A stretch of 64,000 nucleotides of DNA from Candidatus Binataceae bacterium (lineage in GTDB: Bacteria > Desulfobacterota > Binatia > Binatales > Binataceae). Location: positions 72,232-136,231 of the forward strand of contig CAWCTG010000032.1 in assembly GCA_963798375.1 (NCBI GenBank), written 5' to 3'. The translations under genes and the position numbers were made by a program. How positions within the stretch are numbered: position 1 is the stretch's first letter; every line of letters begins with the position of its first letter. Below the pieces are notes generated by a model. That model searched no databases, was not told where the DNA came from, and saw only the letters and a list, made by a program, of their open reading frames with translations. Below are positions 37,441 through 57,457 of this stretch, piece after piece.

Positions 37441-39183
37441 ATGAAACTATCGCTCGCTTGTGGATGCTGCAGACCATCAACGTTCAAACGACACCGCGAA
37501 CCAACCGACGCGCCAATTCAGGCCACCCCCGAAGAACTACAGGCGATAAGGCTCCAGCTCGCTGAGATCGAGCAATCGCTCTCGCGCCTATGGGGTCCGA
37601 CAATTTGGAGCCGCACGCCCGAGTGCATCCAGGTTCGCGCCGAAGCCGCCGATCTGATCGACCGGCACTTCGACGGCATCGTCGAGCAGTGGGGAGAAGC
37701 GATAATCGCCCTCATCGACGGCCGCTCCGAACACGACCAGGAAGAGGGCAAAGCCAGTTTGGTCAACGCTCTCATCCGTCTCGTCGATCACCTGCGCGAT
37801 CCCGACGACATTTGCACGTACGTTTATCTGCGCCGGCATTGCCAGGAGGGGATGCTCGCGCGGGCCAAACCGTCGCAGTTCAACACCATCCACATCGCGC
37901 TCAAGCAAATAATTCTCAATCACGTAAAATCTTCAATGACCGGTCCCGCGATGGAACTGGTGCGCGACCTGGTGGTGGCGGCAATCGACGAGCGGCGCCT
38001 GATGGTCTCGCAGTTCTACATCGAATCGCGCGAACGGATGCTGCGCGAATCCGAAGAGAAGTACCGCAACACCATCGACCACGCGCCGGATCCAATGTAT
38101 GAGATCGAAGCGGATACCTGGGTCGTGACCGGGCTGAATGCGGCCGCCCTGCGACTCCATCGAACCGAGGTACCGCCAAAAGGTTGGTATGACCCCGGCC
38201 ATGAAAAGAAGCAGATTATTGGATTTCCGATCACAGATTTCGTACCGCCGGAGTTAAGGCCAAGAGTGATCGAGAGCCTGGAGACGGTTGTGCGCCAGGG
38301 ATCGGCGCAGGCCTCGGAATTTCCGATCGGGCCGCTCTTCTTCGACGTAAACTCCGCGCTCATCACCTACGGCAAGAAGCAATTCATCCAGATGATCCTG
38401 CGCGACGTAACGCAGCGGCGCGACATGCTCGACTCGCTGATCAAGGCCGAGCGATTGGCCGCGGCGGGCACCTTCGCGGCGGGCGTGGCGCATGAGGTGA
38501 ACAACCCGCTGGCGTCGATCTCATCGCTGGTTCAATCCATCCTGACCGGCGAGAACGACCCCCAGCGGCGCACCACCCTGCACACCATCCTGTCCCAGAT
38601 CACGCGCATCTCGAGCACGCTCAAGGACCTGGTGAATTTCGCGCGACCCACCACCGCGCAACGCAAACCGGTTGACGTCAACGGGCTGATCGCCGAGACG
38701 CTGCGGCTCATCACCTACAACAAACGCTTCAGCGGCATCCAGATCGAACCCATTCTTGCTCCCGATCTGCGCCGCGCGTTCGCCGACGACAACGAAATTC
38801 AGCAGGTGCTGCTCAATCTGCTCTTCAACGCCGCCGACGCCTCCCCCGCCGAGGGCGCCGTGATCAAAGTGATCACCGAGAACCAGCGCGCCGGACAGGG
38901 CGCGGACAAATCGGGCCGGGTGGTTATCAAGGTGGTTGACAACGGCATCGGAATCCCGCGCGAACATCTGGAACGCGTGTTCGATCCATTCTTTACCACC
39001 AAGCCCGCGGGCGCCGGGGTCGGACTGGGACTGTCGCTATGCCAGCGCATGATCCTGTCCAATCAGGGCACCATTCGCGTTGACAGCGAGGTCGGCCGCG
39101 GCACCTCCGTCACCGTCACGCTGGCGGCGGGCGCCCAGGATTCCGAACGCGCGGAACAGGCGGCGAGCATGGCCGCGTCTTGA
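37441..39183 (+). CDS. PAS-domain sensor histidine kinase
   Basis: H-box HEVNNPLASI; HATPase motifs DNGIGIP and GLGLSL. Confidence 0.8.
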   Translation: MKLSLACGCCRPSTFKRHREPTDAPIQATPEELQAIRLQLAEIEQSLSRLWGPTIWSRTPECIQVRAEAADLIDRHFDGIVEQWGEAIIALIDGRSEHDQEEGKASLVNALIRLVDHLRDPDDICTYVYLRRHCQEGMLARAKPSQFNTIHIALKQIILNHVKSSMTGPAMELVRDLVVAAIDERRLMVSQFYIESRERMLRESEEKYRNTIDHAPDPMYEIEADTWVVTGLNAAALRLHRTEVPPKGWYDPGHEKKQIIGFPITDFVPPELRPRVIESLETVVRQGSAQASEFPIGPLFFDVNSALITYGKKQFIQMILRDVTQRRDMLDSLIKAERLAAAGTFAAGVAHEVNNPLASISSLVQSILTGENDPQRRTTLHTILSQITRISSTLKDLVNFARPTTAQRKPVDVNGLIAETLRLITYNKRFSGIQIEPILAPDLRRAFADDNEIQQVLLNLLFNAADASPAEGAVIKVITENQRAGQGADKSGRVVIKVVDNGIGIPREHLERVFDPFFTTKPAGAGVGLGLSLCQRMILSNQGTIRVDSEVGRGTSVTVTLAAGAQDSERAEQAASMAAS

Positions 39184-39196
39184 GAATCGAAATGCG

Positions 39197-40621
39197 ATGA
39201 ACAACGACGCTTCATGGACCGCACAGGAACGCGGACCTTACCGGCTGCTGATCGTCGAAGACGAACCCTTGATGCGCTCGATCATCGTGCAGCTCGCGCG
39301 CAGCGAAGGCTACGAGGTAATGGAGGCGCCGGCCGCGGAGGTCGCGCTGCACATCTTCGAAAAAGAAAAAATCGATCTCGCGATTCTCGACCTTAACCTG
39401 ACCAGCGGCGGCAACGGACTCGATCTGCTCCGCAAAATGCGCGAACTCGACCCCGAGGTGATGGGAATAATCGTCACCGCCTACGCCAGCGTCGAGTCAG
39501 CCGTCGAGGCGCTGCACCAGGGCGCTTACGATTACATCACCAAGCCGTTTGCGAACGATCATCTGAAAAAGGTGATGCGCAACGCGCTCGAGGGCAAGGC
39601 GCTGTTCAGGGAAAACCGTTTTCTGCGCCAGGAACTGCGCGAGAAGTATCGCTTCGAGAGCATCATCGGCAAAAGCGACGCCATCGAAAGCGTGTTCCGC
39701 GTCATGGAAAAAGTCGCGCGCACCGACACCAGCGTGTTGATCACCGGCGACTCCGGCACCGGCAAGGAACTGGTGGCCCGCGCGATTCATTTCAGCTCCG
39801 AGCGCGCCAGCAACCGCTTCCTGCCGATCAATTGCGGCGCGCTGCCCGAGAACCTGCTCGAGAGCGAACTGTTCGGCTACAAACGCGGCGCATTCACCGG
39901 CGCCGGGCAGGACAAGGTCGGCCTGCTCAAGGCCGCCGACAAAGGCACCGTCCTGCTCGACGAGATTGGCGAGTTGCCGCTCGCGCTGCAGGTCAAACTG
40001 CTGCGCGCGCTTCAGGAGCGCGAGGTCTATCCGCTTGGCGCCAACGATCCGGTGGCGTTCGACGTGCGCGTGCTGTGCGCCACCAATCGCAACCTCGAAA
40101 GCGAAGTCAAGGCCGGCCGCTTCCGCGAGGAACTGCTCTACCGAATCAACGTCATCAACATCAATCTTCCCGGTTTGCGCGAGCGCCAGGACGATATTCC
40201 CCTGCTCGCCAACCATTTCCTGCGCAAGTACGAAAAGTCGATGTCGCGAACAGCGATGCGCTTTTCCAAAGGCGCGATGCGCCTGCTCATCAACTACGCC
40301 TGGCCGGGCAACGTCCGGGAGCTCGAAAACGCCGTCGAGCGCGCCGCCATTCTGGCCGAGACCGACGTCATCCACTCGCACGATTTGCCTGACAAGCTGC
40401 GCAGCACGTCGCCCGTGATGGCGAGTGTCGAGAACCCCGGCCTCACGCTCGAGGAGCTTGAGCGCGAGCATATCAAACTCGTGCTCGACAGAGTCGAAAA
40501 CGACAAGGTGAAGGCCGCGCAGGTGCTCGGGATTCACCTCTCGACGCTCTATCGCAAGGTCCAGCGTTACCACCTCGACGGCGACATCCCCGTGCATCAG
40601 GAGCCTGCGCGCTCGGCGTGA
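39197..40621 (+). CDS. Sigma-54-dependent response regulator (NtrC family: REC + AAA+ + HTH)
   Basis: [11 protein letters not shown]...; Walker [16 protein letters not shown]; GAFTGA motif ([15 protein letters not shown]); C-terminal HTH. Confidence 0.9.
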
Positions 40622-40709
40622 GGGCCGCGGAATAGGCGTGGCAATCCGCCAGTCAAGGATATAGAGTTTCCAGTGGGCCGACTGGACGGCGGCCGGCCCG
40701 GAGAAAAAT

Positions 40710-40925
40710 ATGGACCTGTTTGCGCCAACTCACCTGCTGATCATTTTGCTGATCATTTTGGTCATCTTCGGGCCTAGCAAGCTCGGCGATGTCGGCGGCG
40801 CGATGGGCAAAGCGATTCGCGATTTCAAGCGCGCGATGAACGAGCCCGACGACGCCGCCAAGACGGTCGCGAAGACCGACGACGCCAAGGCGGCCGAGGC
40901 CGTAAAACCCGACAAACTTTCCTGA
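40710..40925 (+). CDS. tatA: Twin-arginine translocase subunit TatA/E
   Basis: MDLFAPTHLLIILLIILVIFGPSKLGDVGGAMGKAIRDFK. Confidence 0.9.
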   Translation: MDLFAPTHLLIILLIILVIFGPSKLGDVGGAMGKAIRDFKRAMNEPDDAAKTVAKTDDAKAAEAVKPDKLS

Positions 40926-41029: not shown

Positions 41030-41836
41030 TCACATGTTCAGGCATGCTTCGGCGGCGAGCGCGAACAGCCGCTCGCGGATCTGATGACGGTTCCAGTTGC
41101 GATGATCCCATCGGGCGCTTAGATCGTCCCCGCCATAGAGAATCTGTCCGAACTGGACGCCGCGGAACTGCGCGACGGCGAAGAAGGCCGCCGCTTCCAT
41201 CTCGACCGTGAGGCATCCTTCGCGCCTGCGCGAGAGCATCCGGGCGCGCGTCTCGCGGAACAGCCCGTCGGTAGTCCAGGTCTTGGCGACGATATAGTCG
41301 AGGCCGTTTCGCCTCAGGGTCTTTTCGATCGCCGCCAGGGCGCGCGGATGCGGCGCGACTTCACGCGCGGGCGGCAGGTAATGGTACGAAGTGCCCTCGT
41401 CGCGAATCGCAGCGGTCGGCACCACGATATGGCCGACCGCAATCTTCGAGTCGAGCACGCCCGCGCCGCCGCATGCGATGAACTTGCGCACGCCGCGCGC
41501 GATGCATCGATCGAGCATCGCAGCGGCCATCGGAGCGCCTATGCGCGGGTGAGCCACCGCCAGCCGCTTGCCGCCGAACTCGAGCTCGTAAACGGGATGG
41601 CGCCCCACTTCGCTGATCGCGTGATCGATCTCGCGGGCGCCGCCATTGAGGATGAGGTCGTCGATCACGTCCTGGAAGAAGCAGAGCACGCAATGCTTTG
41701 GCACGTCGATCGGTTTGTACACGCGGCGCGGCTCGATGATCGCAGTCGGTGAGGGATCGTATTCGAGGATGGGGAACGGACACGCGGGCCGGCGCTTTGG
41801 GACGCGATGGGGTGATTTAGGGTGACGCGGCTTCAT
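41030..41836 (-). CDS. PNP/UDP-family nucleoside phosphorylase-like protein
   Basis: Phosphorylase fold signature FIACGGAGVLD...TVEMEAAAF; ~269 aa from MKPRHPK. Confidence 0.55.
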   Translation of the reverse strand: MKPRHPKSPHRVPKRRPACPFPILEYDPSPTAIIEPRRVYKPIDVPKHCVLCFFQDVIDDLILNGGAREIDHAISEVGRHPVYELEFGGKRLAVAHPRIGAPMAAAMLDRCIARGVRKFIACGGAGVLDSKIAVGHIVVPTAAIRDEGTSYHYLPPAREVAPHPRALAAIEKTLRRNGLDYIVAKTWTTDGLFRETRARMLSRRREGCLTVEMEAAAFFAVAQFRGVQFGQILYGGDDLSARWDHRNWNRHQIRERLFALAAEACLNM

Positions 41837-42259
41837 GACGCGATAGTAGCAGGGGCCGGCCCCTGCACCCGAGTCAGGACGAGAAGAAGAGAGGCGGCGG
41901 AGGTTATCCTGAGTGAAGTCGAAGGCGCCGTTAGAAGGGCGGGGGTAAGGTCGCGAGCGGCGAGAGACGCCTGCTGCATTCAGCTCGATTCTCGCGGCGG
42001 CACTGGAAAGGCTGTGCAACAAACCCGCCTGGAAATCTTGCACAGGGGGGCCGTTTGGACTACAAGACGGGCTGAAATCATAGAGTAAAATGCGATTGCG
42101 AGGATTGTGACGGTATAAAATTTGCTTACTTGGCAGACCGAGGTTTTTAGAAAGATTAATGAGAGGGCATTTTCTCCAAGGATCACAAGGCCGCCGCCGA
42201 AGGATCCCAAAACCATGATGATTCTTTTGGATAGGATCGCATCGCCTTTTGGATACAGT

Positions 42260-42277
42260 TGTCCCGTTTTTGGGACA
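42260..42277. promoter_or_regulatory. Perfect 6-6-6 palindrome TGTCCC-gttttt-GGGACA ~60 nt upstream of the cytochrome operon; candidate operator
   Basis: Seen directly, in a low-GC promoter region that also has two CTTTTGGATA direct repeats (42222-42231 and 42247-42256). Confidence 0.3.
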
Positions 42278-42337
42278 GCTCGTCGTTGTGAGGAGCATGT
42301 GTAACCGCCGGCGGTAAGCCGCTAGACGGGCGCGCCT

Positions 42338-43395
42338 TTGCCGACGGCGGGCGCCCGAAATGGAGACGGCAATATGGAGGGGGAACGCAGCTCGCGAAAG
42401 TTTTGGGCAGGTCTTTTGGTGGCGCTGGTCGCGTTTGGAATCGCCTCCCTGGTTTCATCGCCCCCCGCAATCGGCATGGAAGGCACCCTGCTTTCCCAAG
42501 CCACAGGATCGGGGACCCGGCTACCGCCGGGCTATGTCCATAATGACACCTGCACCAGTTGCCATGATGTATCGGTCAAGTCCTTCCGCAAGACAATGAT
42601 GGGCCATCTTATGATGGGCCAGCCGCGCGACGAGGAGGAAGGCCTCGCGTGCCAGGCCTGTCATGGTCCCGGCCGCGAGCATCTACGCCATCCGAGCAAG
42701 CCGTCGCCGGGATTTCTGAGTTTTCGCGAGACCACCTTCACCGACATCAAGATTGAGAACGACCGGTGCCTCGCATGCCATCAAAACGGCGAGCGCGGGT
42801 TCTGGCGAGCCAGCGCCCACGCCGAGCGCGGCATTCGATGCGTTGATTGCCACGCCGTGATGTGTCCGGTGACGGCGAGCGCGCTGCCGCAGGCGCAACT
42901 CAAGAAGTCACCGCTTGGCACTGAATTCATCAACCCGTTCGTCGTGACGCGGCCCGAAACGCAGGTCTGCCTGCGCTGCCATCTCGACAAAAAGATGGAA
43001 ATCAATTTGCCGTCGCACATGCCGCTGCGCGAGGGGTTGATGACGTGCACCGACTGCCACAACCCGCACGGCGGACCGTATCAGAAGCAATTGCGGGCGG
43101 CGATGGTCAATGAGGTCTGCTACCGCTGTCATGCCGAAAAGCGCGGGCCGTTCCTCTGGATGCACGCGCCGGTGGCGATGAACTGCCTCAATTGCCATAT
43201 CCCGCACGGCAGCGTCAACCAGCACATGCTGGTGATCAACATGCCGGTGCTCTGCCAGCGCTGCCACATCGGCACCCGTCATCCGAGTGAGCCACAGAGG
43301 GGGGGTCAATTTTCGTGATCAACCAGCAATGCGCCAATTGCCATTCGCAGATACACGGCTCGAGCTCGCCGGGCGGGAGATATTTCACGCGCTGA
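42338..43395 (+). CDS. Periplasmic decaheme c-type cytochrome, MtrA/MtoA/PioA family. The reading frame is broken at the G7 run 43299-43305, which places the tenth CXXCH (CANCHSQIHGS) in the +1 frame.
   Basis: Nine CXXCH motifs in ORF 42338-43318 (CTSCH, CQACH, CLACH, CVDCH, CLRCH, CTDCH, CYRCH, CLNCH, CQRCH). The next frame reads INQQCANCHSQIHGSSSPGGRYFTR*, a typical MtrA-family C-terminus. N-terminal signal/anchor present. Confidence 0.8.
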
Positions 43396-43466
43396 AGCGG
43401 GAGGCAGAGGAACGCACGGCATCGCTGGGCCGCACCGCGTCTTGCAGCCGGCCCGGGAGGAAAGTC

Positions 43467-45722
43467 ATGAACCTGAAGCGGTTGTTAGCCGGATGTGGAA
43501 CGATGGCGCTCGTGTTGTCGATGCTTTCGCCGGCGCTGGCACAGGTCGATTTCGCGCAATTCACAGCGCAGGGTTCGGTCGAGGCCGGCGCCATTCCCCA
43601 GCCTGTCCCTTATACCAATGTCGCGGAGTATCAGCAGTACCGCGATCTGGCGCAGCAGTTCATCGTTCCGCAACTGCAGTTGATCCTGGGCGACAAGGCG
43701 GAGAACTACTACGTCCAGTTCGACGCCATCAACGTCGCGCAAAAGAACCAGATGTATTCGCTGCGCTTCGGCGAGTACGGTCTGCTCGATGTTCAGGCAA
43801 AATTCTTCGAGATTCCACACAACTTCAGCAACGGCATCGCGAGCACGCCGTACAACCAGGAAGGCGGCAACTTCACTCTATCCTCGAAGCCCACTGGTAC
43901 CGGCCCCGCGCTCGATTCCTGGCTGACAGCGAACGCCAAAACGTTCGACATGAGCCTGCTCGAAGGTGTCGCGGACATCGACGTGCGCTATACGCCGACG
44001 CCGTCGCTGACCTTCAGTGCGAACATGGATTACCAGAACCCCACCGGCCAACAGCCATTCGGCGGCTCCTTTCTGTTTGGCACCAGCCCGGGTACTTACA
44101 AAGTGAACGAACTGTTCCTGCCAATCCAGTACTACACCTATAACTTCGGCACCGGCATCGAATACGCGAAAAACGGATGGATGGTGGGTTTCCAGTACCA
44201 GGGGTCCTTCTTCGTCGACGACTACAGCACCCTGACCTGGGACAACCCCCTCAATACCAGCGGAGTAGGCAGCAAATGCGTTGATTCCACCGTTTTCACT
44301 TCCACCTCGCTCACCGGCCCCTGCCAGGGACGGGCAGCCATGTACCCGAACAACCAGGCTCACAACTTCATCGTGAACGGAACGGGTCAGCTTCCATTCA
44401 ACACACACGTGATGGGGAGCCTCGAGTACGGATTCTGGCTCCAGAACGCTCCCTTCATCCCGCTTACGGCCAACAGCAAGTTGCAGCAGTCATTAAGTTC
44501 GGTAGGAGCGCCTAATAGCCTCGGCGGCGACGTGCAGCCTTTCTTTGCCAACTTCACGATCGATAGCAATCCAATCGAACCGCTGGATCTAAAGGCGACC
44601 TATTCCTATTTCGATTACGACAACCTGACGCCGGCGATCACCTTCACAGGTGTTAAGTCGCTGAATGACGTAGCGGACGCGCAGACGCCTTTCACCGCTT
44701 ATCCCTTTGCATTCTCGGAGCAGGACGTCAGCCTCGAGCCAACCTACCGCCTGACTGATACTCTCGCCACACACTTTATGTTCAAGTGGCAGACCAACCA
44801 CAACGGCGGGCTGGAGGTGCTACAGCAGGATCAAACCAGCTACGGACCCGCGCTCGATTGGAACCCATACCCGTGGCTGACTTTCCGGGCGGACTACCAG
44901 CACGCGCACCGCGACTCGCCGGGATACAACAACAACCGCGCCAGCCTGGTCCAGGTGCTTGGCGGGACCCCGGGAGAGATCGAGGAGCTTCAGAGCCTCT
45001 GGCGGTTCGACGAGGCCACGCTCGATGTGAACCAGACCTCGCTCTATGCCTCCGCGCAGCCGATCGAACAACTCACGCTGTTCGCCGCCTTCAATTACGA
45101 CGACTATAACTACCCCAACAGCGACTTCGGCCTGGAGCACACTTCGGACTATTCGCCGTCGGTGGGGGCCAGTTGGGAACCGATGCCAGGCATGCACCTT
45201 TTTAGCGACTACTCCTGGCAGGCGTACGATTGGAACCTATGGTCACAGGACGAGACTACTATTCCGGCGGCGAAGCCTCCGCCTGGAAAAACGAACGCTT
45301 GGGAGGCCAGGGGCCGCAACCAGGGCAACAATATCGATTTCGGCACGGACATCGCGATACCGCCGAATCGCATTCTGCCGCGGCCGTCGCACCTGAAACT
45401 CCAGTACACCTACACGGTTGGCAACAACAGCACCCACCAATCGGGGGCTACCTCGGCCGGGGCGTCAGGGGAGGCGATCGACTATCCCGATGTCGGCAGC
45501 CAGTTCCAAGAGTTGATAATTCAGTACCAGTACGATTTGCTTGACAACCTGGCTATCAACGTCGGCTACTACTTCACTCACTCCAACGAAAACAATTTCA
45601 TGGTGGACAACATGAGGAACTACATGCCGAATGCAAGCGCAAATTCGACATTTCTCGGCAACACCGACATAGCTCCTTACAACGTCAATGTCGCATTCAT
45701 AACCCTGAAGTACAAATTTTAG
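43467..45722 (+). CDS. Large outer-membrane beta-barrel protein (~752 aa), MtrB/MtoB/PioB-like porin partner of the decaheme cytochrome
   Basis: Signal peptide MNLKRLLAGCGTMALVLSMLSPALAQ. Y/N/G/S/T/Q-rich with alternating amphipathic strands. Ends in an aromatic C-terminus ...AFITLKYKF. Sits immediately downstream of the MtrA-like gene. The listed ORF start 43287 is an artefactual upstream extension. Confidence 0.7.
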   Translation: MNLKRLLAGCGTMALVLSMLSPALAQVDFAQFTAQGSVEAGAIPQPVPYTNVAEYQQYRDLAQQFIVPQLQLILGDKAENYYVQFDAINVAQKNQMYSLRFGEYGLLDVQAKFFEIPHNFSNGIASTPYNQEGGNFTLSSKPTGTGPALDSWLTANAKTFDMSLLEGVADIDVRYTPTPSLTFSANMDYQNPTGQQPFGGSFLFGTSPGTYKVNELFLPIQYYTYNFGTGIEYAKNGWMVGFQYQGSFFVDDYSTLTWDNPLNTSGVGSKCVDSTVFTSTSLTGPCQGRAAMYPNNQAHNFIVNGTGQLPFNTHVMGSLEYGFWLQNAPFIPLTANSKLQQSLSSVGAPNSLGGDVQPFFANFTIDSNPIEPLDLKATYSYFDYDNLTPAITFTGVKSLNDVADAQTPFTAYPFAFSEQDVSLEPTYRLTDTLATHFMFKWQTNHNGGLEVLQQDQTSYGPALDWNPYPWLTFRADYQHAHRDSPGYNNNRASLVQVLGGTPGEIEELQSLWRFDEATLDVNQTSLYASAQPIEQLTLFAAFNYDDYNYPNSDFGLEHTSDYSPSVGASWEPMPGMHLFSDYSWQAYDWNLWSQDETTIPAAKPPPGKTNAWEARGRNQGNNIDFGTDIAIPPNRILPRPSHLKLQYTYTVGNNSTHQSGATSAGASGEAIDYPDVGSQFQELIIQYQYDLLDNLAINVGYYFTHSNENNFMVDNMRNYMPNASANSTFLGNTDIAPYNVNVAFITLKYKF

Positions 45723-45845
45723 GCCAAGCCTATTAAGGTACTTGGAGCGAGAGGCCGGAACACAAACAACGAATGACCTATCGTCCGCGGCGGCCCGGCC
45801 CGCAAACCAATTGGCGGACAAGGATTGTAAGGAAGGAGAGAAGCT

Positions 45846-46259
45846 ATGTCGAAGAGTTTGAGAACGAAGATTCGATCGAGACTCTGGATTTGGACCGCGT
45901 CGGCCATACCAGCAGTTGCAGTGCTGGCGTTGATCTCAACCTGCGCCCGCGCAGCCGATCTCACGGCCGCGGCCGGCAGTTACTCGGATACCTGCGCTAA
46001 GTGTCACGGCCCGGCCGGCAAGGGCGATGGCCCCAAAGCGGCCGAACTGAAAGACAAGGACGGCAAGCCGGTCACCATCGGAGATTTATCCGATTGTGCC
46101 AAGATGAGCAAGATAACCGATGACGACATGTTCAAGGAGCTGAAAGAGGGCGGCGCGTCAGTAGGCAAGAGCAAGTTCATGACTCCCTATGGCGATGCGA
46201 TGGAGGACGACGAGATCAAAGGGCTGGTCGCTTATGTCAGAACCTTGTGCAAGAAGTAG
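45846..46259 (+). CDS. Monoheme class-I cytochrome c, secreted (MtoD/Cyc1-like candidate periplasmic shuttle), paralog 1
   Basis: Signal peptide; single CAKCH; conserved C-terminus LVAYVRTLCKK. Confidence 0.8.
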   Translation: MSKSLRTKIRSRLWIWTASAIPAVAVLALISTCARAADLTAAAGSYSDTCAKCHGPAGKGDGPKAAELKDKDGKPVTIGDLSDCAKMSKITDDDMFKELKEGGASVGKSKFMTPYGDAMEDDEIKGLVAYVRTLCKK

Positions 46260-46280
46260 CGGCGCGCGCCACATCGGCGA

Positions 46281-46406
46281 TCGACTGTATCAATACTGGC
46301 ACCCGGTTCCATGAGTTGATATTTCAGTGCGAGTACGATTTTGCGCGATAACATCGCGTCATCGCAGGCTACTACTCCAGCAATTGTGGCGAACATAATT
46401 TCATGG
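46281..46406 (+). repeat. Degraded duplicate of the porin-gene 3' region (cf. 45480-45603), footprint of a tandem segmental duplication that generated the second monoheme cytochrome gene
   Basis: ~75% identity by direct alignment. Both cytochrome genes end ...tgcaagaagtagcggcgcgcgcca. Both have an AAGGAAGGAGAG-type SD. Confidence 0.7.
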
Positions 46407-46423
46407 AGGGAAGGAGAGGAGCA

Positions 46424-46825
46424 ATGAGAACTAAGATTCGATCGATACTGTGGGTTTGGACCGTGTCGGCCATACCGGCGGTTGCAGCGCTGGCGTTGAT
46501 CTCAACCGGCGCCCGCGCAGCCGATCTCACGGCCGCGGCCAGCAGTTACTCGGATACGTGCGCTAAGTGTCACGGCCCGCTCGGCAAGGGCGACGGCCCC
46601 AAAGCTGCCGAACTGAAAGACAAGGACGGCAAGGTGGTCCCCAGCGGAGATTTGTCCGATTGCGCCAAGATGGCCAAGGTTACTGACGACGACATGTTCA
46701 AGGAGCTCAAGGAAGGCGGCCAGGCGGTCGGCAAGAGCAAGTTCATGACTCCCTATGGCGACGCGATGGAGGACGACGAGATCAAGGCGATGGTTGCGTA
46801 CGTCAGAACCTTGTGCAAGAAGTAG
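46424..46825 (+). CDS. Monoheme class-I cytochrome c, paralog 2 (tandem duplicate of 45846-46259)
   Basis: MRTKIRSILWVWTVSAIPAVAALALIS...CAKCHGP...MVAYVRTLCKK; ~85% aa identity to paralog 1. Confidence 0.8.
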   Translation: MRTKIRSILWVWTVSAIPAVAALALISTGARAADLTAAASSYSDTCAKCHGPLGKGDGPKAAELKDKDGKVVPSGDLSDCAKMAKVTDDDMFKELKEGGQAVGKSKFMTPYGDAMEDDEIKAMVAYVRTLCKK

Positions 46826-47113
46826 CGGCGCGCGCCAGGCTCCAGAATGAGCCTCGGCGCGCGGGGTTGAAAGCGAGCAGTCTCAGGCAGCGGCCGGCTT
46901 GTAGTTCGCCGGCGGTGTCGCGCAGCAGTTGTACTCGCGCTCGCCCTGACCACTCAAAGCTGGCAAGTGAAAGGCCTCGCACTGGTAACCGGCTGAACCT
47001 CACCAGAGAGCGACCCAGGACAAGCGGGTCCGATCCCAGGGATCGGACCGCTTGCCGCTCGGAAACCGGGCGTCGCTTCCCCAGATTTTCGAGAGAAGCT
47101 ACGCAGGTGGAAT

Positions 47114-48655
47114 ATGCAAACGAGCGGAGATGAGCCGGGCGCACCGGGATCGGAGCGCCCGGCACGGCAAAATGGCGCCGAGGCCGAACGCCAATTACCA
47201 AGCCTGGCTCGCAACCGGCTGAGCATCGCCGGCCTGATCATCGCCGTCATCGTCTTGGCGGACATGGTTTCCCTGGCTGGCATGACGCTGCTAGGGGTGC
47301 AGTTGAACCCCTACGTCGGCATTTTTGCCTACCTGATCGGTCCGGCCGTCATGATATTCGGCCTGTTGCTCATTCCGGCCGGGATGGCACTCGAACGGCG
47401 ACGGCGCCGGAAGTTTCTGCCGGGTGAGCTGCCGCCCTTTCCCAAGCTCGATCTCAACGAGCCTTCGGTTCGGCGCGGCTTTCTCGGCGCGGTAGGCTTT
47501 TCGATGTTTTTTGTGGTTCTGAGCCTGGCGGCAAGCTACCAAGGCTACCAGTTCACGGACTCGGTGATGTTCTGCGGCCAGACCTGTCACGTCCCGATGA
47601 AGCCGGAATTCGACGCCTACCAGGATTCGCCGCACGCGCGGGTCGCATGCGCGGACTGCCACGTAGGACCCGGCGCCACTTGGTTTGTTCGCTCCAAGCT
47701 GTCGGGCGCCTATCAGGTCTATGCGGTAATGTTCAACAAGTACCCCAGACCGATTGAAACCCCCATCAAGGATTTGCGCCCGGTTCAGGCAGCCTGCGAG
47801 CAATGCCATTGGCCGCAGAAGTTCTACGGCGCGCAACTCAAGGTCTTCGCGCATTATGCCTACGACGAGAAGAACACGCCCACGCGCATCCAGATGCTGA
47901 TCAAGACCGGAGGAGGAGCTGCCGAGTTCGGCCGCGCCACCGGAATCCACTGGCACATGAACATCGCCAACCAAGTATGGTTCGCGGCTACTGACACGCA
48001 GTCCCAGGTGATTCCATGGGTGAAGGTAAGGACCCCCGACGGAAGGACCACGGAATACACTGCCAAGGGCACTTCGCTGACCCCAAAGCAGATTGCGGCG
48101 ATTCCCATCCAGACGATGGACTGTGTGAGCTGCCATGCCCGCCCGTCCCATAAGTTTCTTCCGCCCGATCAGGCGGTCGATGCGTCGTTCGAGGCGGGCC
48201 AGCTCGACCCTACGCTTCCCTTCTTGAAGAGGCAGGCGGTCAAGGCTCTGCTCAAGCGCTATGACACGTCGGAACACGCGACCGAGGGAATCGCCACCGC
48301 CCTCGATACCTTTTACCAGGATCGCTATCCCCAGATTTATGCCGCCAAGGCGCAGCAAATCGGGGCCGCCATTGCCGCCGTGCAGCACATCTACACAACC
48401 AACATCTTTTCGTTTATGCGGGTTGATTGGCGCACGCATCCCGATAACATCGGCCACCTTTATTACGCGGGATGCTTCCGCTGTCACGACGGGCAGCACG
48501 TCAGCGCCGATGGCCGGGTGATACCCCAGCAATGCGAAACCTGTCACACGGTCCTTGCATCTCCCAACAGTGTCGCCGAGTTCAAGCATCCAGTTGATCT
48601 GAACGATGTAGGCGGCGCGACCTGCAGCACCTGTCATACCGGAGGCGTCCTGTAA
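47114..48655 (+). CDS. Membrane-anchored heptaheme c-type cytochrome, NapC/NirT-related (ImcH-like candidate quinol/quinone oxidoreductase)
   Basis: Two N-terminal TM helices; seven CXXCH (CGQTCH, CADCH, CEQCH, CVSCH, CFRCH, CETCH, CSTCH); 513 aa. Confidence 0.7.
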   Translation: MQTSGDEPGAPGSERPARQNGAEAERQLPSLARNRLSIAGLIIAVIVLADMVSLAGMTLLGVQLNPYVGIFAYLIGPAVMIFGLLLIPAGMALERRRRRKFLPGELPPFPKLDLNEPSVRRGFLGAVGFSMFFVVLSLAASYQGYQFTDSVMFCGQTCHVPMKPEFDAYQDSPHARVACADCHVGPGATWFVRSKLSGAYQVYAVMFNKYPRPIETPIKDLRPVQAACEQCHWPQKFYGAQLKVFAHYAYDEKNTPTRIQMLIKTGGGAAEFGRATGIHWHMNIANQVWFAATDTQSQVIPWVKVRTPDGRTTEYTAKGTSLTPKQIAAIPIQTMDCVSCHARPSHKFLPPDQAVDASFEAGQLDPTLPFLKRQAVKALLKRYDTSEHATEGIATALDTFYQDRYPQIYAAKAQQIGAAIAAVQHIYTTNIFSFMRVDWRTHPDNIGHLYYAGCFRCHDGQHVSADGRVIPQQCETCHTVLASPNSVAEFKHPVDLNDVGGATCSTCHTGGVL

Positions 48656-48679
48656 GCGAATCGGCGCGGCGCAGGCGGT

Positions 48680-50056
48680 GTGAGACAAATGACGCACGGA
48701 TCAGGGCGTATGGTTAGCTCAGGGCGGACGGTTAGCGGCCTCGGGCGCGCCGCGTGCGCTATTGCGGCAATGCTGCTGTACGCAGTTGCAACGGCGCAGG
48801 CCGCTCCGACCAAGGCCGCTCCGCCGAAGGCCGCTAAGACGACGAGAGCCGGTAAGACGACGAAAGCCGCTCCGGCGAAGCCGCTCACCGATAGCGATTG
48901 CCTGTCCTGTCATAATCTTAAGGCCAGCGCCAAGTTACAGGCGCGGCCGGTTAGCGTGTACGTCAATGCGGAGATATACCAGCCCTCGGTCCACGCGAAG
49001 CTGGGTTGTGTCTCCTGCCATTCTGACATCCATGCCTTTCCTCATCCCGATCCGGTCAAGCCGGTTTCCTGCGCCGGCTGCCACGCGAGTGAGACTTCGG
49101 CCTATGCGGGCAGCGTTCACGCTATCGCCGAGCGGGAGAAGAAGAGCCGCTTTCCGGCCTGTCTCAATTGTCACGGAAACCCCCACGGCCTCCGCGCCAA
49201 GACTGACCCGAAGTCGCGAGTTTACCCGCTCAACCTGCCGGGCACCTGCGGCACCTGCCACGGTAACCCCGAGCTTGCCAAGAAATATGGCTTGCCGGAC
49301 GTGTACCCGCTCTACATGGATTCGATTCACGGCTTCGCGCTGAGTGCCGACGGGCTCCTGGTGGCTGCCACCTGCAGCAAGTGCCATGGCGCGCACGATA
49401 TCCTCAGCCGAAAGGACCCGAAGAGCCGGATCTTCTATAAAAATGTGCCTGCCACCTGTGGCGCGTGCCATGCCGGCGTCGAAGTCGAGTACCTTGCCGG
49501 AGCGCACGGCGCGGCGATGATCGCCGGGCGCGCGAATGCTCCGGTATGCACGAATTGCCATACCTCGCATCAGATTACCCAGGTGGACGTCGCTAGCTGG
49601 CAAATCAAAACCGTCGCCACCTGCGGTAACTGTCACAAGACCAGGCTTAGGAGCTACGGCGATACTTTCCACGGCGAGGTGACCGAGCGCGGCTTCGTCT
49701 CCGCGGCGCAATGCTGGAGTTGCCATGGCGCTCACGAAGTTCTTAAGGCCTCCAATCCCAAGTCCAAGGTCGCGCCGGCCAACCTTCTCACCACCTGCGG
49801 CAAGTGCCACGTCGGCGCAACCGCTAGCTTTGTCAAGTACGATCCGCATCCCAATGCGCACGAGCGGCGGCGCAACCCGGCCCTGTATTACGCGGCTCTA
49901 TGCATGGGACTGCTGCGTTTGATTGACCCATTCGGACTGATGGCTGTTGGCGTGGTGCTCGCAATTACGCTCGCTCACGGAATCGGCCAGATCGTGCGGT
50001 ATAACACGGGGACGGACCACTCGGACTCTGACCGCCATTCGGGAGATGAAAAATGA
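48680..50056 (+). CDS. Undecaheme (11 x CXXCH) c-type cytochrome with Sec signal and C-terminal hydrophobic helix
   Basis: CLSCH, CVSCH, CAGCH, CLNCH, CGTCH, CSKCH, CGACH, CTNCH, CGNCH, CWSCH, CGKCH counted. Repeated ...DPKSR... spacing. C-terminal TM LYYAALCMGLLRLIDPFGLMAVGVVLAITLAH. Confidence 0.8.
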   Translation: MRQMTHGSGRMVSSGRTVSGLGRAACAIAAMLLYAVATAQAAPTKAAPPKAAKTTRAGKTTKAAPAKPLTDSDCLSCHNLKASAKLQARPVSVYVNAEIYQPSVHAKLGCVSCHSDIHAFPHPDPVKPVSCAGCHASETSAYAGSVHAIAEREKKSRFPACLNCHGNPHGLRAKTDPKSRVYPLNLPGTCGTCHGNPELAKKYGLPDVYPLYMDSIHGFALSADGLLVAATCSKCHGAHDILSRKDPKSRIFYKNVPATCGACHAGVEVEYLAGAHGAAMIAGRANAPVCTNCHTSHQITQVDVASWQIKTVATCGNCHKTRLRSYGDTFHGEVTERGFVSAAQCWSCHGAHEVLKASNPKSKVAPANLLTTCGKCHVGATASFVKYDPHPNAHERRRNPALYYAALCMGLLRLIDPFGLMAVGVVLAITLAHGIGQIVRYNTGTDHSDSDRHSGDEK

Positions 50057-50145
50057 CCTACGTCGTAGTTGATCCCGTAACGCGCATCGAGGGCCATCTA
50101 CGGATCGAAGCCGAGCTTGACGGCGGCAAGGTGAGGATTCTGTGA
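50053..50145 (+). pseudogene. 30-codon remnant of a [NiFe]-hydrogenase large subunit (N-terminal L1 motif fused to a short C-terminal tail), start/stop-coupled between the 11-heme cytochrome and cytochrome b
   Basis: MTYVVVDPVTRIEGHLRIEAELDGGKVRIL*. VVDPVTRIEGHLRIE matches the universally conserved N-terminus of NiFe hydrogenase large subunits (cf. E. coli HyaB LVVDPITRIEGHMRCEV). Its ATG overlaps the upstream TGA (ATGA) and its TGA overlaps the GTG of the cytochrome b gene. Confidence 0.65.
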
Positions 50146-50843
50146 GTGCGCCACCGCGGCTTGTGCCCGAGCCACCTGGCACTGGCCTTGTTTATGTCTG
50201 GCAACTGCCAGTGCGTTTGTCGCACTGGTTGATCGTCATATCGATAGCTGTGCTAGCGGTTACCGGCTACTTCATCGGCAATCCGTTAATAACAACCGGC
50301 GGACCTGCAAGGGATCGCATCGTCGCAGCCACCATGCGCAGCATCCATCTCTACGCCGCGTGGGTGTTTGGTGTGTCGGTGGTCGTGCGGGTTTACTGGA
50401 TGTTCGCCGGCAGTTACTACGCGCGTTGGGACCAGTTCATTCCGGTCTCGCGCGACCGGCTCAATAGCGTCTGGCAGGCGATGAGGTTTTATAGCTTCCA
50501 GCGCCGCGGCCCACAGCTTTATCCGGGTCATAGCGGCCTTGCCGCGCTGGCTTATACGGGCATCTTCATGATCTACTTTATGGAGATCGTCACCGGCCTG
50601 GCCCTGTACTTCATCTATGCTCCGGCGAATTCGGTCTTTCAGGGTTTTCGCTTTTTAGTCCCAATCTACTCTCGCTTTCTCCACCATATCGGGATGTGGA
50701 TCTTGTTGATGTTCGTGATTCAGCACGTGTACTCGACGATTCTTTTTTCGGTCGAGGAGCGCAGTGGAATCATCGACTCGATGTTCACAGGCTACAAGCG
50801 CATAAGCCCGGAAGCCGAGGAGGAGGCGCATCGCGATGCCTGA
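50142..50843 (+). CDS. Dihaem b-type cytochrome of the Ni/Fe-hydrogenase (HyaC/HydC/FdnI-like) family, membrane quinone-interacting subunit
   Basis: Four TM helices with conserved His (RLSHWLI..., IHLYAAW, HHIGMWILLMFVIQHVYS); family-typical R-x-x-H-W at TM1. Confidence 0.8.
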   Translation: MSAPPRLVPEPPGTGLVYVWQLPVRLSHWLIVISIAVLAVTGYFIGNPLITTGGPARDRIVAATMRSIHLYAAWVFGVSVVVRVYWMFAGSYYARWDQFIPVSRDRLNSVWQAMRFYSFQRRGPQLYPGHSGLAALAYTGIFMIYFMEIVTGLALYFIYAPANSVFQGFRFLVPIYSRFLHHIGMWILLMFVIQHVYSTILFSVEERSGIIDSMFTGYKRISPEAEEEAHRDA

Positions 50844-50891
50844 CGAGTTACTCGAACTCATGAACGCCGCTATCACACAAGGAGAATCGCA

Positions 50892-51656
50892 ATGATATTC
50901 GGTGTAGTCATCTTAATCGCCGCAATCTTCATTCTGAGCGGGGTCAAAGTCCTTAACGAATATCAGCGCGCCGTAGTCTTCCGCCTGGGGCGGCTCATGC
51001 GGTACCGCGGCCCCGGCATAATTTACGTGGTCCCCCTGGTGGAGCGGATGGTCCGGATCGATCTGCGTACCGTCGTGCTCGACATCCCGCCGCAGGACGT
51101 AATCACCAAGGACAACGTGACCGTCAAGGTGAGCGCGGTGCTCTACTTCCGGGTGATCGATCCGTCGCGCGCGGTCACCGAGGTGGCAAATTACCTGTTC
51201 GCCACCATGCAGCTCGCGCAGACCACCCTGCGCTCCGTTGGCGGACAGACCGAACTCGACGAACTTCTGAGCCAGCGCGACAAAGTCAACGCGCGCATCC
51301 AGGCGATCGTCGATGCCCAAACCGAGCCGTGGGGAATCAAGGTCATGCTCGTCGAGCTGAAGAACATTGATCTGCCGCAGGACATGCAGCGCGCGATCGC
51401 CGCCCAGGCCGAGGCCGAGCGCGAACGGCGCGCCAAGGTGATCGCGGCCGAGGGCGAATTTCAGGCGGCGCAGCGCCTGGCCGAGGCGGCGGAAATCATG
51501 GGCAAAAGCCCGATCACGCTCCAGCTTCGCTACCTGCAGACGCTTGCCGAGATCGCGACCGAGCATAATTCGACCACCGTGTTTCCCCTCCCGATCGATC
51601 TGCTCGAGCCCTTTCGCAAGCTGGCAGGCGGCGGCGACGCCGACAAGCCGAAGTAA
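50892..51656 (+). CDS. SPFH/band-7 (stomatin/prohibitin-like) membrane protein
   Basis: N-terminal TM; SPFH core [18 protein letters not shown]...; C-terminal coiled coil [22 protein letters not shown]. Confidence 0.85.
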
Positions 51657-51954
51657 GGGGAGGTCATCGCGGCGCCGTGGACAGATGGCGCCGGCAGTGG
51701 TCGGATCGCTGAGCTGATTTCGACGACGGCCCTGGGCACGCCTGATTGTGGTTGACAAAAGCTTGGAATAAATGTTGCTGATGCTTTAAAGTAAGCGGAT
51801 GAAGGGAGGCTAATGCGTTGGGAAAAACGGAACTGAGGATGCTATCGTCGCACGATGTTCCCAACCATTGTGTCTCAAACGAATACACCTGTGTAGCCTT
51901 TCGTCATGATGTTTGGTAGCGAAGCGAAACGCCTTAGACAAAAGAAGGAGCAGA

Positions 51955-52368
51955 ATGGTCATGTCAGAAAATTCACCGGCGAAGATTCGATCGAAGGGCT
52001 GGAGCTGGACGCCCTTGGCGGCGGGAGTAGCGATGATGCTGGCGCCGGCATTGATCCCAACCGTCGTACGTGCCGCCGAAGTCGATCTGAAGGCCGCGGC
52101 CAGTAATTATTCGGATTCGTGCGTGGACTGCCATGGTGAGTCGGGCAAAGGCGACGGTAAAAAGGCGGCCGACCTGAAGGTCAAGCCCGCCGACTATACC
52201 AATTGCGCAGAGATGACGAAGTTGAGCGACGATTATCTCTTCAACGTCATCAAAAACGGCGGCAAGTCGGTGCACAAGAGCGAGGCCATGGCCGACTTCG
52301 GCAAGGCCTACGACGACGACGAGATTCACGGGCTTGTCGCCTACGTCCGCACGTTCTGCAAAAAGTGA
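51955..52368 (+). CDS. Monoheme class-I cytochrome c, third and more divergent paralog
   Basis: Signal peptide; CVDCHGESGKGDG; C-terminus LVAYVRTFCKK. Confidence 0.75.
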   Translation: MVMSENSPAKIRSKGWSWTPLAAGVAMMLAPALIPTVVRAAEVDLKAAASNYSDSCVDCHGESGKGDGKKAADLKVKPADYTNCAEMTKLSDDYLFNVIKNGGKSVHKSEAMADFGKAYDDDEIHGLVAYVRTFCKK

Positions 52369-52917
52369 GTGCGGCTAGCCGTGCCCGACGGTAATCGCGC
52401 ACAATTTGCGGTCTCGGAAGCCGGCGAAGTTATCGAGAGCGAACCGCGGCGGAAGTTCCTGGCGCGTCTGTTCTGGGGCGCGATGGCCATTGTCAGCGCC
52501 GCCATCGCGGCGCCCGTCATTTCCTATCTGATTATCCCGCTGTTGCGGCCGGGTGAGTCCAACGATTGGGTAAAGATGGGAAACATCGCCGACCTTCCGC
52601 TCAACCTTCCCCAGCGGCTCGAGGTCGGCCGGCGCGTGGTCGAGGGATGGGAAACGGACGATTCGCAGGTGACGGCCTGGGTGGTGCGGATGCCGGACAA
52701 AATCTACGTTTTCGATCCGCATTGCACGCACTTGGGATGCGCCTACCGATGGGTCGAGCAGGAAAAGCAGTTCTTCTGCCCATGCCATGCCGGCGTATTC
52801 AGCCTAACCGGGCAGGTGGTCAGCGGCCCTCCCCCACGTCCGCTGGACGTTTACGCGCACGAGGTCCGCGAGGGCGCCCTTTATGTGGTCCCGACTCCAA
52901 CTAAGCAAGTGGTTTGA
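52369..52917 (+). CDS. Rieske [2Fe-2S] iron-sulfur protein with twin-arginine signal
   Basis: RRKFLARL Tat motif; Rieske boxes CTHLGC and CPCHAGVF; GTG start directly after the upstream stop. Confidence 0.85.
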   Translation: MRLAVPDGNRAQFAVSEAGEVIESEPRRKFLARLFWGAMAIVSAAIAAPVISYLIIPLLRPGESNDWVKMGNIADLPLNLPQRLEVGRRVVEGWETDDSQVTAWVVRMPDKIYVFDPHCTHLGCAYRWVEQEKQFFCPCHAGVFSLTGQVVSGPPPRPLDVYAHEVREGALYVVPTPTKQVV

Positions 52918-54619
52918 CGAGCGCCTCGGCACGCGGGCGATCCGCGTCGCGCTCTTCGATCGCAACATTCCGAAAAGCAGCCCGCTGGTCGAGTGGATCT
53001 ACACGCTCGGCAGCGTGCTGCTGTTCTTTTTCATCCTTCAAGCAGTGACCGGCATGATGCTGGCGATGAACTATGTGGCCAGCCCCGATCACGCCTTCGA
53101 CGCCGCGCGTTACATCTCGCTGCGCGCTCCCATGGGCCAGTTCATCCGTGGGCTTCATTCGTGGGGCGCAACCGCGATGGTGGTGGTGATCGGCGCGCAC
53201 ATGCTGACCACCTTTCTCTCCGGCAGCTACAAGTATCCGCGCGAATCGACCTGGATTACCGGCGTCGTCCTGTTCCTGATCGTGATGTTGTTCGGATTCA
53301 CCGGATATCTGCTGCCCTGGAACCAGAAGTCGTACTGGGCGACCGTGGTCGGCACCAACATCGCGGGCGCGACTCCCTACATCGGGCAGTACATCGTGCG
53401 CTTCTTCCGCGGTGGCAGCGAGGTCGGCCCGCAAACGTTGACCAGATTCTACGCCCTGCACGTGCTGATGCTGCCGGCGGCGCTGATCGTTTTCGTCTCG
53501 GTGCATCTTTTCATGGTCGTGCGCCAGGGCATCTCGGCGCCTCCCAAGCGGCATCCCGAATACGGCCGCCACGGTATCAACGCCCAGCTCGGCATCGACC
53601 CCGGGCTTGGTGTCGGCACCCAGCTCAGCGTCGACGACCAGCGCAGCCGGGCGGCCGACGAATATCATCACGAGAAAGAGGCCGGCGAGTCCTTCTATCC
53701 GTTTTATCTGTCCAAAGACGCTGTCGCCGTGCTGCTGGCGCTTTCGGTGCTGGTGATTTTGGTCTTGAAGTATCCGGCCGAGATCGGCGAGATCGCCGAC
53801 CCCGCCAGCACCAGCTACAATCCGCGCCCGGACTGGTACTTCCTGTTCCTGTTCCAGGCGCTCAAGTATTTTCCCGGCAGCATGGAATCGGTCGCGGCAG
53901 TCATGCTGCCGGGGCTTGCGTTGCTGGTCCTCGTCACAGTGCCCTTCTTCGATCGGCGGATGCGCCAGCATCCGCTGGACCGCCCGATCGCAACCGGCTT
54001 TGCGCTCTCCACGCTGGTCGGCGTGATCGCGTTGACCGTGATCGGCGCGCGATCGCCGCTGCTCAACCCATATGTGCCGGAGCTGCCGACCGTCGCCGAG
54101 GGTCACCGGCTCTTTCACACGCTCAATTGCGCATACTGCCACGCCGTCAATGGCCGCGGGAGCAGGATTGGGCCCGATCTGATGCTGGATCCCCTCAAGC
54201 ACGACAAGGCTTGGATAGTCCTCCATCTCGAGCGGCCCGGCGAAGTCTTTCGGCCCGGCGCCCGCACCGCAATGACCGGATTGTTGCCGGAGGAAAGCGC
54301 GGACCTGTTCGACTACATCAATGAGCTGCAGGGCGGCGGCCCCTATAGCGACAAGGCGTCCCGGCTGTTCTACCGAAATTGCGGCAAGTGCCACATGGTG
54401 GCAGGCCACGGCGGCGCCAAGGCTCCCGATCTGAGCGGAATCGGGCTGGTGCGGTCGGTTTCGTTCATCCACCGCTACATCGAGGATCCGAAGGCCCTCT
54501 ACAGCCAGACCAAGATGCCGCCGTTCTTGCAGCCGCAGGGCAAGCTGACCCACCCCGAAATCGAGGACATCGCGCGCTTTCTCGCGCATCAGCGCACACC
54601 GGCGCCACCTAAAAACTGA
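52883..54619 (+). CDS. Cytochrome b (b6 plus subunit-IV-like, fused) with a C-terminal dihaem cytochrome c domain: the cytochrome b/c subunit of a Rieske/cyt b complex
   Basis: Cytochrome b6 N-terminus LSKWFDERLG; haem-ligating His in TM helices; PEWY-like region PDWYFLFLFQALK; two C-terminal CXXCH (CAYCH, CGKCH). Confidence 0.85.
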   Translation: MWSRLQLSKWFDERLGTRAIRVALFDRNIPKSSPLVEWIYTLGSVLLFFFILQAVTGMMLAMNYVASPDHAFDAARYISLRAPMGQFIRGLHSWGATAMVVVIGAHMLTTFLSGSYKYPRESTWITGVVLFLIVMLFGFTGYLLPWNQKSYWATVVGTNIAGATPYIGQYIVRFFRGGSEVGPQTLTRFYALHVLMLPAALIVFVSVHLFMVVRQGISAPPKRHPEYGRHGINAQLGIDPGLGVGTQLSVDDQRSRAADEYHHEKEAGESFYPFYLSKDAVAVLLALSVLVILVLKYPAEIGEIADPASTSYNPRPDWYFLFLFQALKYFPGSMESVAAVMLPGLALLVLVTVPFFDRRMRQHPLDRPIATGFALSTLVGVIALTVIGARSPLLNPYVPELPTVAEGHRLFHTLNCAYCHAVNGRGSRIGPDLMLDPLKHDKAWIVLHLERPGEVFRPGARTAMTGLLPEESADLFDYINELQGGGPYSDKASRLFYRNCGKCHMVAGHGGAKAPDLSGIGLVRSVSFIHRYIEDPKALYSQTKMPPFLQPQGKLTHPEIEDIARFLAHQRTPAPPKN

Positions 54620-56267: not shown

Positions 56268-56651
56268 CTACTTCGAACGCTTTTCTGCCGAAAAGGAACC
56301 AATGGCTTTTTCTGCTTTTTGCAGACGGTCTAGCTCCTCACGCTTATGTCTATCCTGATCGAGAATTAAAAAGATCGCCTGCTTAAGCATCTCAAAGGCG
56401 TTGAGGCATTGAGTCTCCTCAAGTTCGTGGATACCAATCGATAAAATCGCATATACCTTTTTGTTGCGAACAAGAAACTCCGGCAGGTGGTGCTTAAGGA
56501 ACTCAATCTTCTCTTCCATGCGCTTGCCAACGAAGTCGGCGTCCTTCCAGCCTTCTGGCGCCTTGAATTCTTCGAACCGCCGTGTGATCAGCCTTTCGAA
56601 TACACGCCGCAGATAGACGAAAGAACCGACGCTCGACGCCGTGGGCGGCAA
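56268..56651 (-). CDS. Hypothetical protein in low-GC island (K/E-rich, 127 aa)
   Basis: Longest ORF in the AT-richer island; no recognisable motif. Confidence 0.3.
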   Translation of the reverse strand: MPPTASSVGSFVYLRRVFERLITRRFEEFKAPEGWKDADFVGKRMEEKIEFLKHHLPEFLVRNKKVYAILSIGIHELEETQCLNAFEMLKQAIFLILDQDRHKREELDRLQKAEKAIGSFSAEKRSK

Positions 56652-57457
56652 GCCGATTGCTCGATGGAGTTCTACGCCGTCGACTGGGTTAAGAACCTGT
56701 CGATAGTTGCGGCTTTCGTCGTTGGCTATATCTGAAGCGAAGGGTACTGCCCGATTTTTTAAATCAGCGGCTTCTTGAGCTTCAACACAAAAAGGATTGT
56801 GTGCTTCGCGTTACGGGCACAGGCAATTTCGAAACCGAGAGCCGGAATATTTTCGACCGCATATTTGAGGTTCCCGATCTCTATATCGCCAGCAGTGCGG
56901 CTAAGCGTGGGAGCCTTATGGAAGTGCGGGCAGTACCCATCTACGACATGAGGGTGATTGAACATATAGAATATGCCACGCCGCTGTCGCCCAGTTTGGC
57001 AGAGTCGAAATCATACTCGGCATACAGGGGTGCACCGAACAGAAAGTCCTGAATTGAAGATAGCAACGGGAATTTAGGCCCAGAATTGGATTCGGAAATT
57101 TCCGTAGAGTCCATTCTTTCGTATCATGTTGCAACCCGATTTCGACCCCGCGCCAACGACAGTGCGCAGCCAGCTTGGAAGGAAATCGCGCCGTGGGCCG
57201 CCCCTTGCGCGCGGCGGCGAGAAGGCTTGTCGAAAGGTCGTGCCAAACGACTGACAAACCGTGCAGAAATAGACCGAGCAGCATCGACCTGATTTCGACA
57301 AAACCTTTATTTAAGGCGCGTTTTGTTCTTTCACGGATCGAATGCTCGAACTGCTAAGAATGAGAGCCTGTTCCACGCGCGCGCGAACGCGTATAGTCAG
57401 AGGGACCGATCCAGCCACTGTGCATTCTCAAAACTCTGACACCTAGGTGAAGCATCC

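Follow-up and report, generated by a model that had tools for sequence, protein, structure and literature searches.

A one-base difference in a G run displaces the tenth haem motif of an MtrA-family decahaem cytochrome gene in a Candidatus Binatus contig

Background

The closest structurally described counterpart of the protein reported here is MtrA, chain A of PDB entry 6r2q, from the MtrCAB complex of Shewanella baltica (PMC7198977). Only a small part of MtrA, namely residues 284-306 together with haem A10, is presented at the cell surface (PMC7198977).

One-base differences in homopolymers can arise in the cell or in the assembly. Poly-G tracts within open reading frames (ORFs) are known mutational hotspots (PMC3786947, PMC8355987, 10.1101/2022.06.10.495637). 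In Nanopore consensus sequences, indels concentrate in homopolymers, R10.4 data have a nucleotide-specific weakness at homopolymer lengths of 8-9, especially for C, and bins with less than 40x coverage require polishing (PMC9262707, PMC12313526). Here we report a G run in a decahaem cytochrome gene of Candidatus Binatus whose length differs by one base between two near-identical contigs, and weigh the explanations for it.

Methods

The window is the whole stretch of DNA that was analysed, 64,000 nucleotides from a Candidatus Binataceae bacterium (assembly GCA_963798375.1, contig CAWCTG010000032.1, positions 72,232 to 136,231 of the forward strand), and all coordinates refer to it unless another contig is named. 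Family membership was assessed with TIGR03508, which represents the DmsE family decahaem c-type cytochromes and has a curated cutoff of 192.2 bits. The main contig used for comparison, L032 (GCA_052916165.1, JBLFKR010020988.1), encodes the public protein P0136 and is independent of the source contig. Cross-checking of the assembly covered 13 kb, for which L028 (10.15 kb, 99.9% identical, no indels) was used together with L032 for the rest.

Results

Two reading frames at the G run

Direct reading of the sequence places seven consecutive G residues (GGGGGGG) between an A and a T near the 3' end of a cytochrome gene (Table 1). The frame-2 ORF that contains this run starts at TTG 42338 or, more likely, at ATG 42374; its product has a signal-peptide-like N-terminus and nine CXXCH motifs, and ends in CQRCHIGTRHPSEPQRGGQFS at a TGA codon (43316-43318). 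The -1 frame (frame 1) is shut by a TGA at 43288-43290 and then continues as ATEGGSIFVINQQCANCHSQIHGSSSPGGRYFTR to a stop at 43393-43395. It encodes the tenth haem motif, CANCH (43330-43344), and a conserved C-terminus, HGSxSPGGRYFTR. Because of the TGA codons at 43288-43290 and 43316-43318, the frame switch is confined to 43291-43315, an interval within which the G run lies. The missing base puts the last 30 codons, with the tenth CXXCH and the conserved His-Gly-Ser C-terminus, out of frame. A preliminary description of this stretch had given coordinates and translations that proved correct, and had stated that the tenth haem motif of a decahaem cytochrome is missing and sits in the adjacent frame, as the position of CANCH bears out.

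A run of seven G or C residues is unremarkable by itself. The window contains two G/C runs of at least seven, against 7.15 expected from dinucleotide shuffles or 24.6 from independent bases, and no run of at least eight, against 7.7 expected; G/C homopolymers are thus strongly depleted across the window relative to its composition. Another G7 tract of the window lies at 5592-5598. The significance of the site lies in the homology of the displaced frame and not in the G7 run as such.

Table 1 Features of the cytochrome gene and its neighbourhood in the window
Feature	Coordinates	Strand	Evidence or remark
PAS/histidine-kinase sensor, sigma-54-dependent response regulator, tatA	37441-40925	+	Translations; upstream of cytochrome
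5' part of the DmsE/MtrA-family decahaem cytochrome gene, as sequenced	42374-43318	+	314 aa, 9 CXXCH
Hypervariable loop, residues 302-312, between haem-9 and haem-10 motifs	43277-43311	+	Entropy; MtrA alignment
G7 homopolymer	43299-43305	+	Site of one-base length difference; codons Gly310-Gly311 of the haem 9-haem 10 loop
Displaced 3' remainder of the gene	43306-43395	+	-1 frame; SIFVINQQ-CANCH-SQIHGSSSPGGRYFTR then stop
MtrB/PioB-family outer-membrane beta-barrel gene, 751 aa, intact	43467-45722	+	PF11854, E=8.7e-75
Two tandem paralogous monohaem c-type cytochrome genes	45846-46259, about 46424-46825	+	PF00034, PF13442 in orthologous loci
NapC/NirT-family multihaem quinol-dehydrogenase-like gene, 513 aa	47114-48655	+	PF03264
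Multihaem cytochrome, Ni_hydr_CYTB-type cytochrome b, Band_7, cytochrome c, Rieske, cytochrome b/c fusion	48680-54619		Downstream

Identity of the cytochrome and conservation of the displaced frame

With the run repaired to G8, the gene encodes a protein of 340 aa that scores 226.2 bits against TIGR03508, with a match extending to position 257 of the 258 in the profile. For the truncated protein of the window the score is 205.2 bits and the match ends at position 227. Both values exceed the curated cutoff, and on these scores the gene is placed in the DmsE/MtrA decahaem family; the preliminary description had already called it a decahaem cytochrome. Ten CXXCH motifs in one polypeptide are absent from the window as sequenced (nine, plus one out of frame) and present in the G8 allele (P0136 on L032).

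The repaired C-terminus aligns without a gap to those of 19 homologues, among which the Cys and His residues of haem 10, H328 and the GS-SPGG-TR tail are invariant or nearly so. Their invariant residues C320, H324, H328, G329, S330 and P333-G335 are all matched by the -1-frame remainder. The downstream frame is strongly conserved, and represents the expected C-terminus of the protein as had been proposed. Every homologue examined is a single ORF of about 340 aa. The Ser of HGS-S-SPGG, where other homologues have Asn, was considered as a mark of decay after the frameshift and ruled out, for it is common to the intact L032 allele.

The only solved relative found by sequence is 6r2q_A (phmmer, E=2.8e-54, residues 47-338). 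The PDB metadata evidently mislabel this chain, giving its molecule name as 'Cystathionine beta-synthase'. The closest proteins carry Candidatus Binatus or Binataceae annotations, and a scan of the genome collection returned relatives of at most 93% protein identity. The host of the locus is Candidatus Binatus (Binataceae), a soil bacterium.

Recoding is a further alternative: if G7 were the true sequence, the full-length protein might still come from programmed -1 ribosomal frameshifting at G_GGG_GGU or from transcriptional slippage with insertion of an extra G. Although the required direction is -1 and the run, by inspection, formally fits X_XXY_YYZ in the zero frame, the two-frame arrangement occurs in none of the homologues and the site has no downstream stimulatory structure, the fold of 43306-43400 giving z = +1.24 with 183 of 200 shuffles at least as good. 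G_GGG_GGU is not among the known efficient slippery sites, and transcriptional slippage normally needs longer A/T runs. We regard recoding as very improbable.

The missing base lies in the G run

All 20 related loci aligned across the site carry exactly one more base there. An exact look-up found the G8-repaired protein (...RGGSIFV...) in the public protein collection as P0136. Its contig, L032, is 99.25% identical to the window over 7.7 kb (41695-49392), and within the gene the two differ by G8 versus G7 and by two synonymous substitutions, with nothing else. The tract reads GGGGGGGG in L032 and GGGGGGG in the window, with GAGGGGGGG-TCAATTTTC of the window aligned to GAGGGGGGGGTCAATTTTC of L032, and the 90 nt past the shift are identical. 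This comparison shows the difference to be a G8 to G7 contraction inside the G run, and the intact 340-aa gene of L032 upholds the earlier placement of the switch in that run.

A loss just 3' of the run was considered as well, in which an A of CAAATT would have gone from an ancestral GGT CAA ATT (Gly-Gln-Ile) and the G run would be innocent. This placement is the most parsimonious fit to 16 more distant orthologues (about 80-95% DNA identity over the aligned segment), which read GGN CA(A/G) AT(T/C), since the zero frame of the window is GGT CAA up to the break. It is refuted by L032, which shows GGGGGGGG TCA ATT, and by the exact look-up, in which the protein repaired by an A is not in the collection and the one repaired by a G is; in the relatives P0148 and P0142, moreover, the position is likewise occupied by Ser (GGA TCA ATT). 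We give this alternative practically no weight.

In the protein collection, the G7 product (P0180) comes from a single contig, the 427,101-bp source of the window. Each length has thus been observed once, on one G7 contig and one G8 contig, and metagenome contigs scanned for the exact pattern yielded no other copy of the allele.

Origin of the tract and variability of the loop

Among the relatives compared, the G8 tract is specific to this lineage. Relatives whose genes are 93-97.5% identical to L032 have interrupted tracts instead (AGGCGGGGA, AGGAAGGGA or AGGAGGGGA); the G8 tract is a recent product of an interrupted purine run. At the Gln/Ser codon, the change from CAA to TCA looks like a one-base register shift (GGA-CAAATT versus GGATCAA-TT).

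The tract lies in a loop that holds the top-ranked variable window of seven residues in the protein, with a mean entropy of 0.95 against a gene mean of 0.24 (14 Binatus orthologues). This loop aligns to residues 284-306 of S. baltica MtrA. In a conduit without MtrC, haem A10 is the exposed electron exit. Diversifying selection may act on residues 302-312. In comparisons with L039-L041 and L034-L036, the G8 allele (L032 680-1702) is overall nearest to the P0140 type (97.5% nucleotide identity, loop EPARRGQ), and its loop resembles that of the P0148 type (95.3% nucleotide identity, loop EPQRKGS). This pattern suggests mosaicism or recombination in the loop of the G8 allele.

Gene neighbourhood

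The barrel protein encoded next to the cytochrome scores 202 bits against the narrower TIGR03509, under its cutoff of 240, and its exact product is in the protein collection as P0135. The tandem monohaem cytochrome genes share about 90% DNA identity, and their arrangement is kept in related loci. In Candidatus Binatus soli, the counterpart of the 513-aa gene is named NapC/NirT family cytochrome c, and by analogy with CymA its product is likely the inner-membrane entry or exit point of the pathway. The regulatory arrangement upstream is conserved beside the cluster in relatives; in L021, for instance, Sigma54_activat/HTH_8 and TatA_B_E genes lie upstream of the orthologue. The genes at 48680-54619, directly downstream of the MtrAB-type genes, together resemble a complete periplasm-to-quinone electron-transfer island. 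Next to the cluster we saw no surface decahaem gene of the MtrC/OmcA type, and the gene content marks the locus as a porin-cytochrome cluster of the MtrAB/PioAB/MtoAB type lacking an adjacent MtrC gene.

Several further features of the region were noted. All 13 mtrB substitutions between the window and L032 fall within 600 nt (43822-44432), and none occur in the following 1.4 kb; the segment resembles a recombination tract or a strain-variable part of the barrel. Several short-read contigs of the same population (L028-L031) begin shortly 3' of this segment, at 43902-45272. The population is also represented, at 99.2-99.9% identity, in the sister metagenomes GCA_0529157xx-0529161xx. A 2.7-kb stretch (54699-57440) has a GC content of 52-57% against about 62-64% in its flanks and few convincing ORFs; it starts exactly where the 99.9% identity with L028 ends, and may be a strain-specific insertion. 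On the reverse strand, a 422-aa ORF (41030-42298) is nucleoside-phosphorylase-like by eye only in its C-terminal half, and its N-terminal extension, which overlaps the region upstream of mtrA, is probably untranslated.

Discussion

Two causes compete, an ordinary length error and a very recent slippage mutation. Our preferred explanation, to which we give a little better than an even chance, is that G7 is an assembly error, the length of a homopolymer that is truly G8 having been under-called in the source contig. A lineage-specific G8 homopolymer would then have been recorded as G7, and the organism itself would have G8 and a normal ten-haem protein, which would sit within the MtrB/PioB barrel with haem 10 shown at the cell surface. 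The record of the source contig (from NCBI and ENA, with a long contig) has the same pattern as those of the unannotated Nanopore-only MFD MAGs among the relatives. The site is the longest G/C run within the 13 kb that can be cross-checked against near-identical contigs, and the one-base difference is confined to the homopolymer, which has the in-frame length in the independent, near-identical L032 assembly. Downstream of the shift there is no sign of decay, because the 90 nt match L032 exactly and the cluster, mtrB included, is intact.

Two points count against an artefact. Over the 13 kb compared with L028 and L032, no other unexplained indel was found and the remaining 31 homopolymers of 5-6 nt all agree; therefore the assembly is not generally indel-prone. 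In addition, a true G8 tract is hypermutable, and a real contraction would look identical. A second homopolymer frameshift was suspected at an A7/T7 run (17205) and rejected, as the site holds two normal adjacent genes with overlapping open frames, a 289-aa membrane-protein ORF that by eye resembles Lgt and a thioredoxin-like ORF that starts at an ATG of its own. A GC3/ORF map of the window, which is blind to short C-terminal truncations, revealed no further large gene that was obviously split.

The same observations bear on a genuine, recent slipped-strand deletion that turned G8 into G7 in this strain, a change that a +1 slip could reverse and that need not be selected. We consider this possible, at distinctly less than an even chance. 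The strain would make a 314-aa nine-haem protein of about 34 kDa, in place of one of about 37 kDa, without haem 10 and the conserved C-terminal His. The clean agreement elsewhere in the 13 kb fits this alternative, as does the fact that homopolymer length is the sole coding difference from L032. A true G8 is intrinsically slippage-prone, and a tract so young would have left selection little time to purge the deletion; the depletion of G/C runs of at least seven fits with such tracts being costly through their mutability. Yet the G7 allele is on a single contig, the signal of relaxed selection is absent (the downstream frame is that of L032 and the partner genes are intact), and the error mode expected of long-read assembly yields the same pattern. 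Without its last 30 residues the protein would have neither the covalent attachment site of haem 10, nor the proximal His of that haem, nor the invariant H328, and a nine-haem product without the surface-facing terminal haem would be predicted to leave the conduit null or badly impaired.

The preliminary description had offered a sequencing error, an inactivating mutation and phase variation as causes, and of these selected phase variation is the least likely, because the tract is unconserved, lies near the 3' end, falls in a window depleted of G/C runs and is known from each allele once. The tract would here be a selected contingency locus by which the conduit, or its surface-exposed loop, is frequently switched ON and OFF in the population. 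A homopolymer of at least 7 nt whose length sets the frame is indeed present inside the ORF (G7 in the window, G8 in L032), and the polymorphism separates near-identical genomes. The position of the tract is suggestive too, in the most variable loop of the protein and the one homologous to the only cell-surface-exposed part of MtrA. Tracts close to the 3' end that switch C-termini are known from Helicobacter canadensis (PMC2823697). Against this, the tract is absent from all other relatives, even those 95-97.5% identical, each length has a single observation, the window shows depletion, not enrichment, of long G/C runs, and codon 310 of 340 is far from the 5' end. None of the papers listed in a literature search ties homopolymer phase variation to multihaem cytochromes. 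We rate a selected contingency locus as quite improbable, and hold it equally doubtful that the newly evolved G8 is a reversible switch of the terminal haem, and hence of the whole conduit, in the soil Binatus population. Taken jointly, an artefact receives somewhat over half of the probability and a genuine change most of the remainder, of which selected phase variation is a small part.

The finding is an ordinary one-base homopolymer length discrepancy in a well-known family that is already annotated in Binatus genomes. Annotation should treat the gene as a frameshifted or probably intact decahaem cytochrome rather than a nine-haem variant, and should score the Binatus MtrAB-type cluster of the window as present. 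A real deletion would mean that a hypermutable site has very recently cost the strain the surface-facing haem of its conduit, and the locus would then be a small example of new homopolymers making fragile genes. Only if tract length switches recurrently does the locus bear on phase-varied extracellular electron transfer in environmental bacteria; were the reversible switch true, it would be the first contingency locus reported for an extracellular electron-transfer pathway.

As a homopolymer, the tract invites comparison with two described situations. The phase-variable poly-G ORFs, such as hmbR/hpuAB of Neisseria (PMC3786947) and the G/C tracts of Campylobacter (PMC8355987), share with the Binatus locus an ORF for an envelope protein in which one base of a G tract toggles the frame. 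Unlike them, the Binatus tract is unconserved among relatives, near the 3' end and unique rather than one of many. The homopolymer indels of Nanopore-only assemblies (PMC9262707) resemble it in that a one-base under-call at an 8-nt G/C run splits a gene call; in contrast to those, the 13 kb open to cross-checking show no further error of this kind.

As a conduit, the locus resembles the Shewanella MtrCAB system (PDB 6R2Q chain A; PMC7198977) in encoding, beside an MtrB-type barrel gene, a ten-haem periplasm-to-surface wire whose haem-10 motif and HGSN-P-G C-terminus are conserved and in which the stretch preceding haem 10 is the counterpart of the surface-exposed residues of MtrA. It differs from that system in that the Binatus protein has a haem 9-haem 10 loop shorter by 9 residues, no MtrC/OmcA-type gene is seen adjacent, and the tenth haem motif is out of frame as sequenced. 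In combining a decahaem cytochrome and a barrel without MtrC, and in having a CymA/NapC-like quinol dehydrogenase gene nearby, the Binatus locus is like MtoA/MtoB of Sideroxydans and PioA/PioB of Rhodopseudomonas (PMC3274759).
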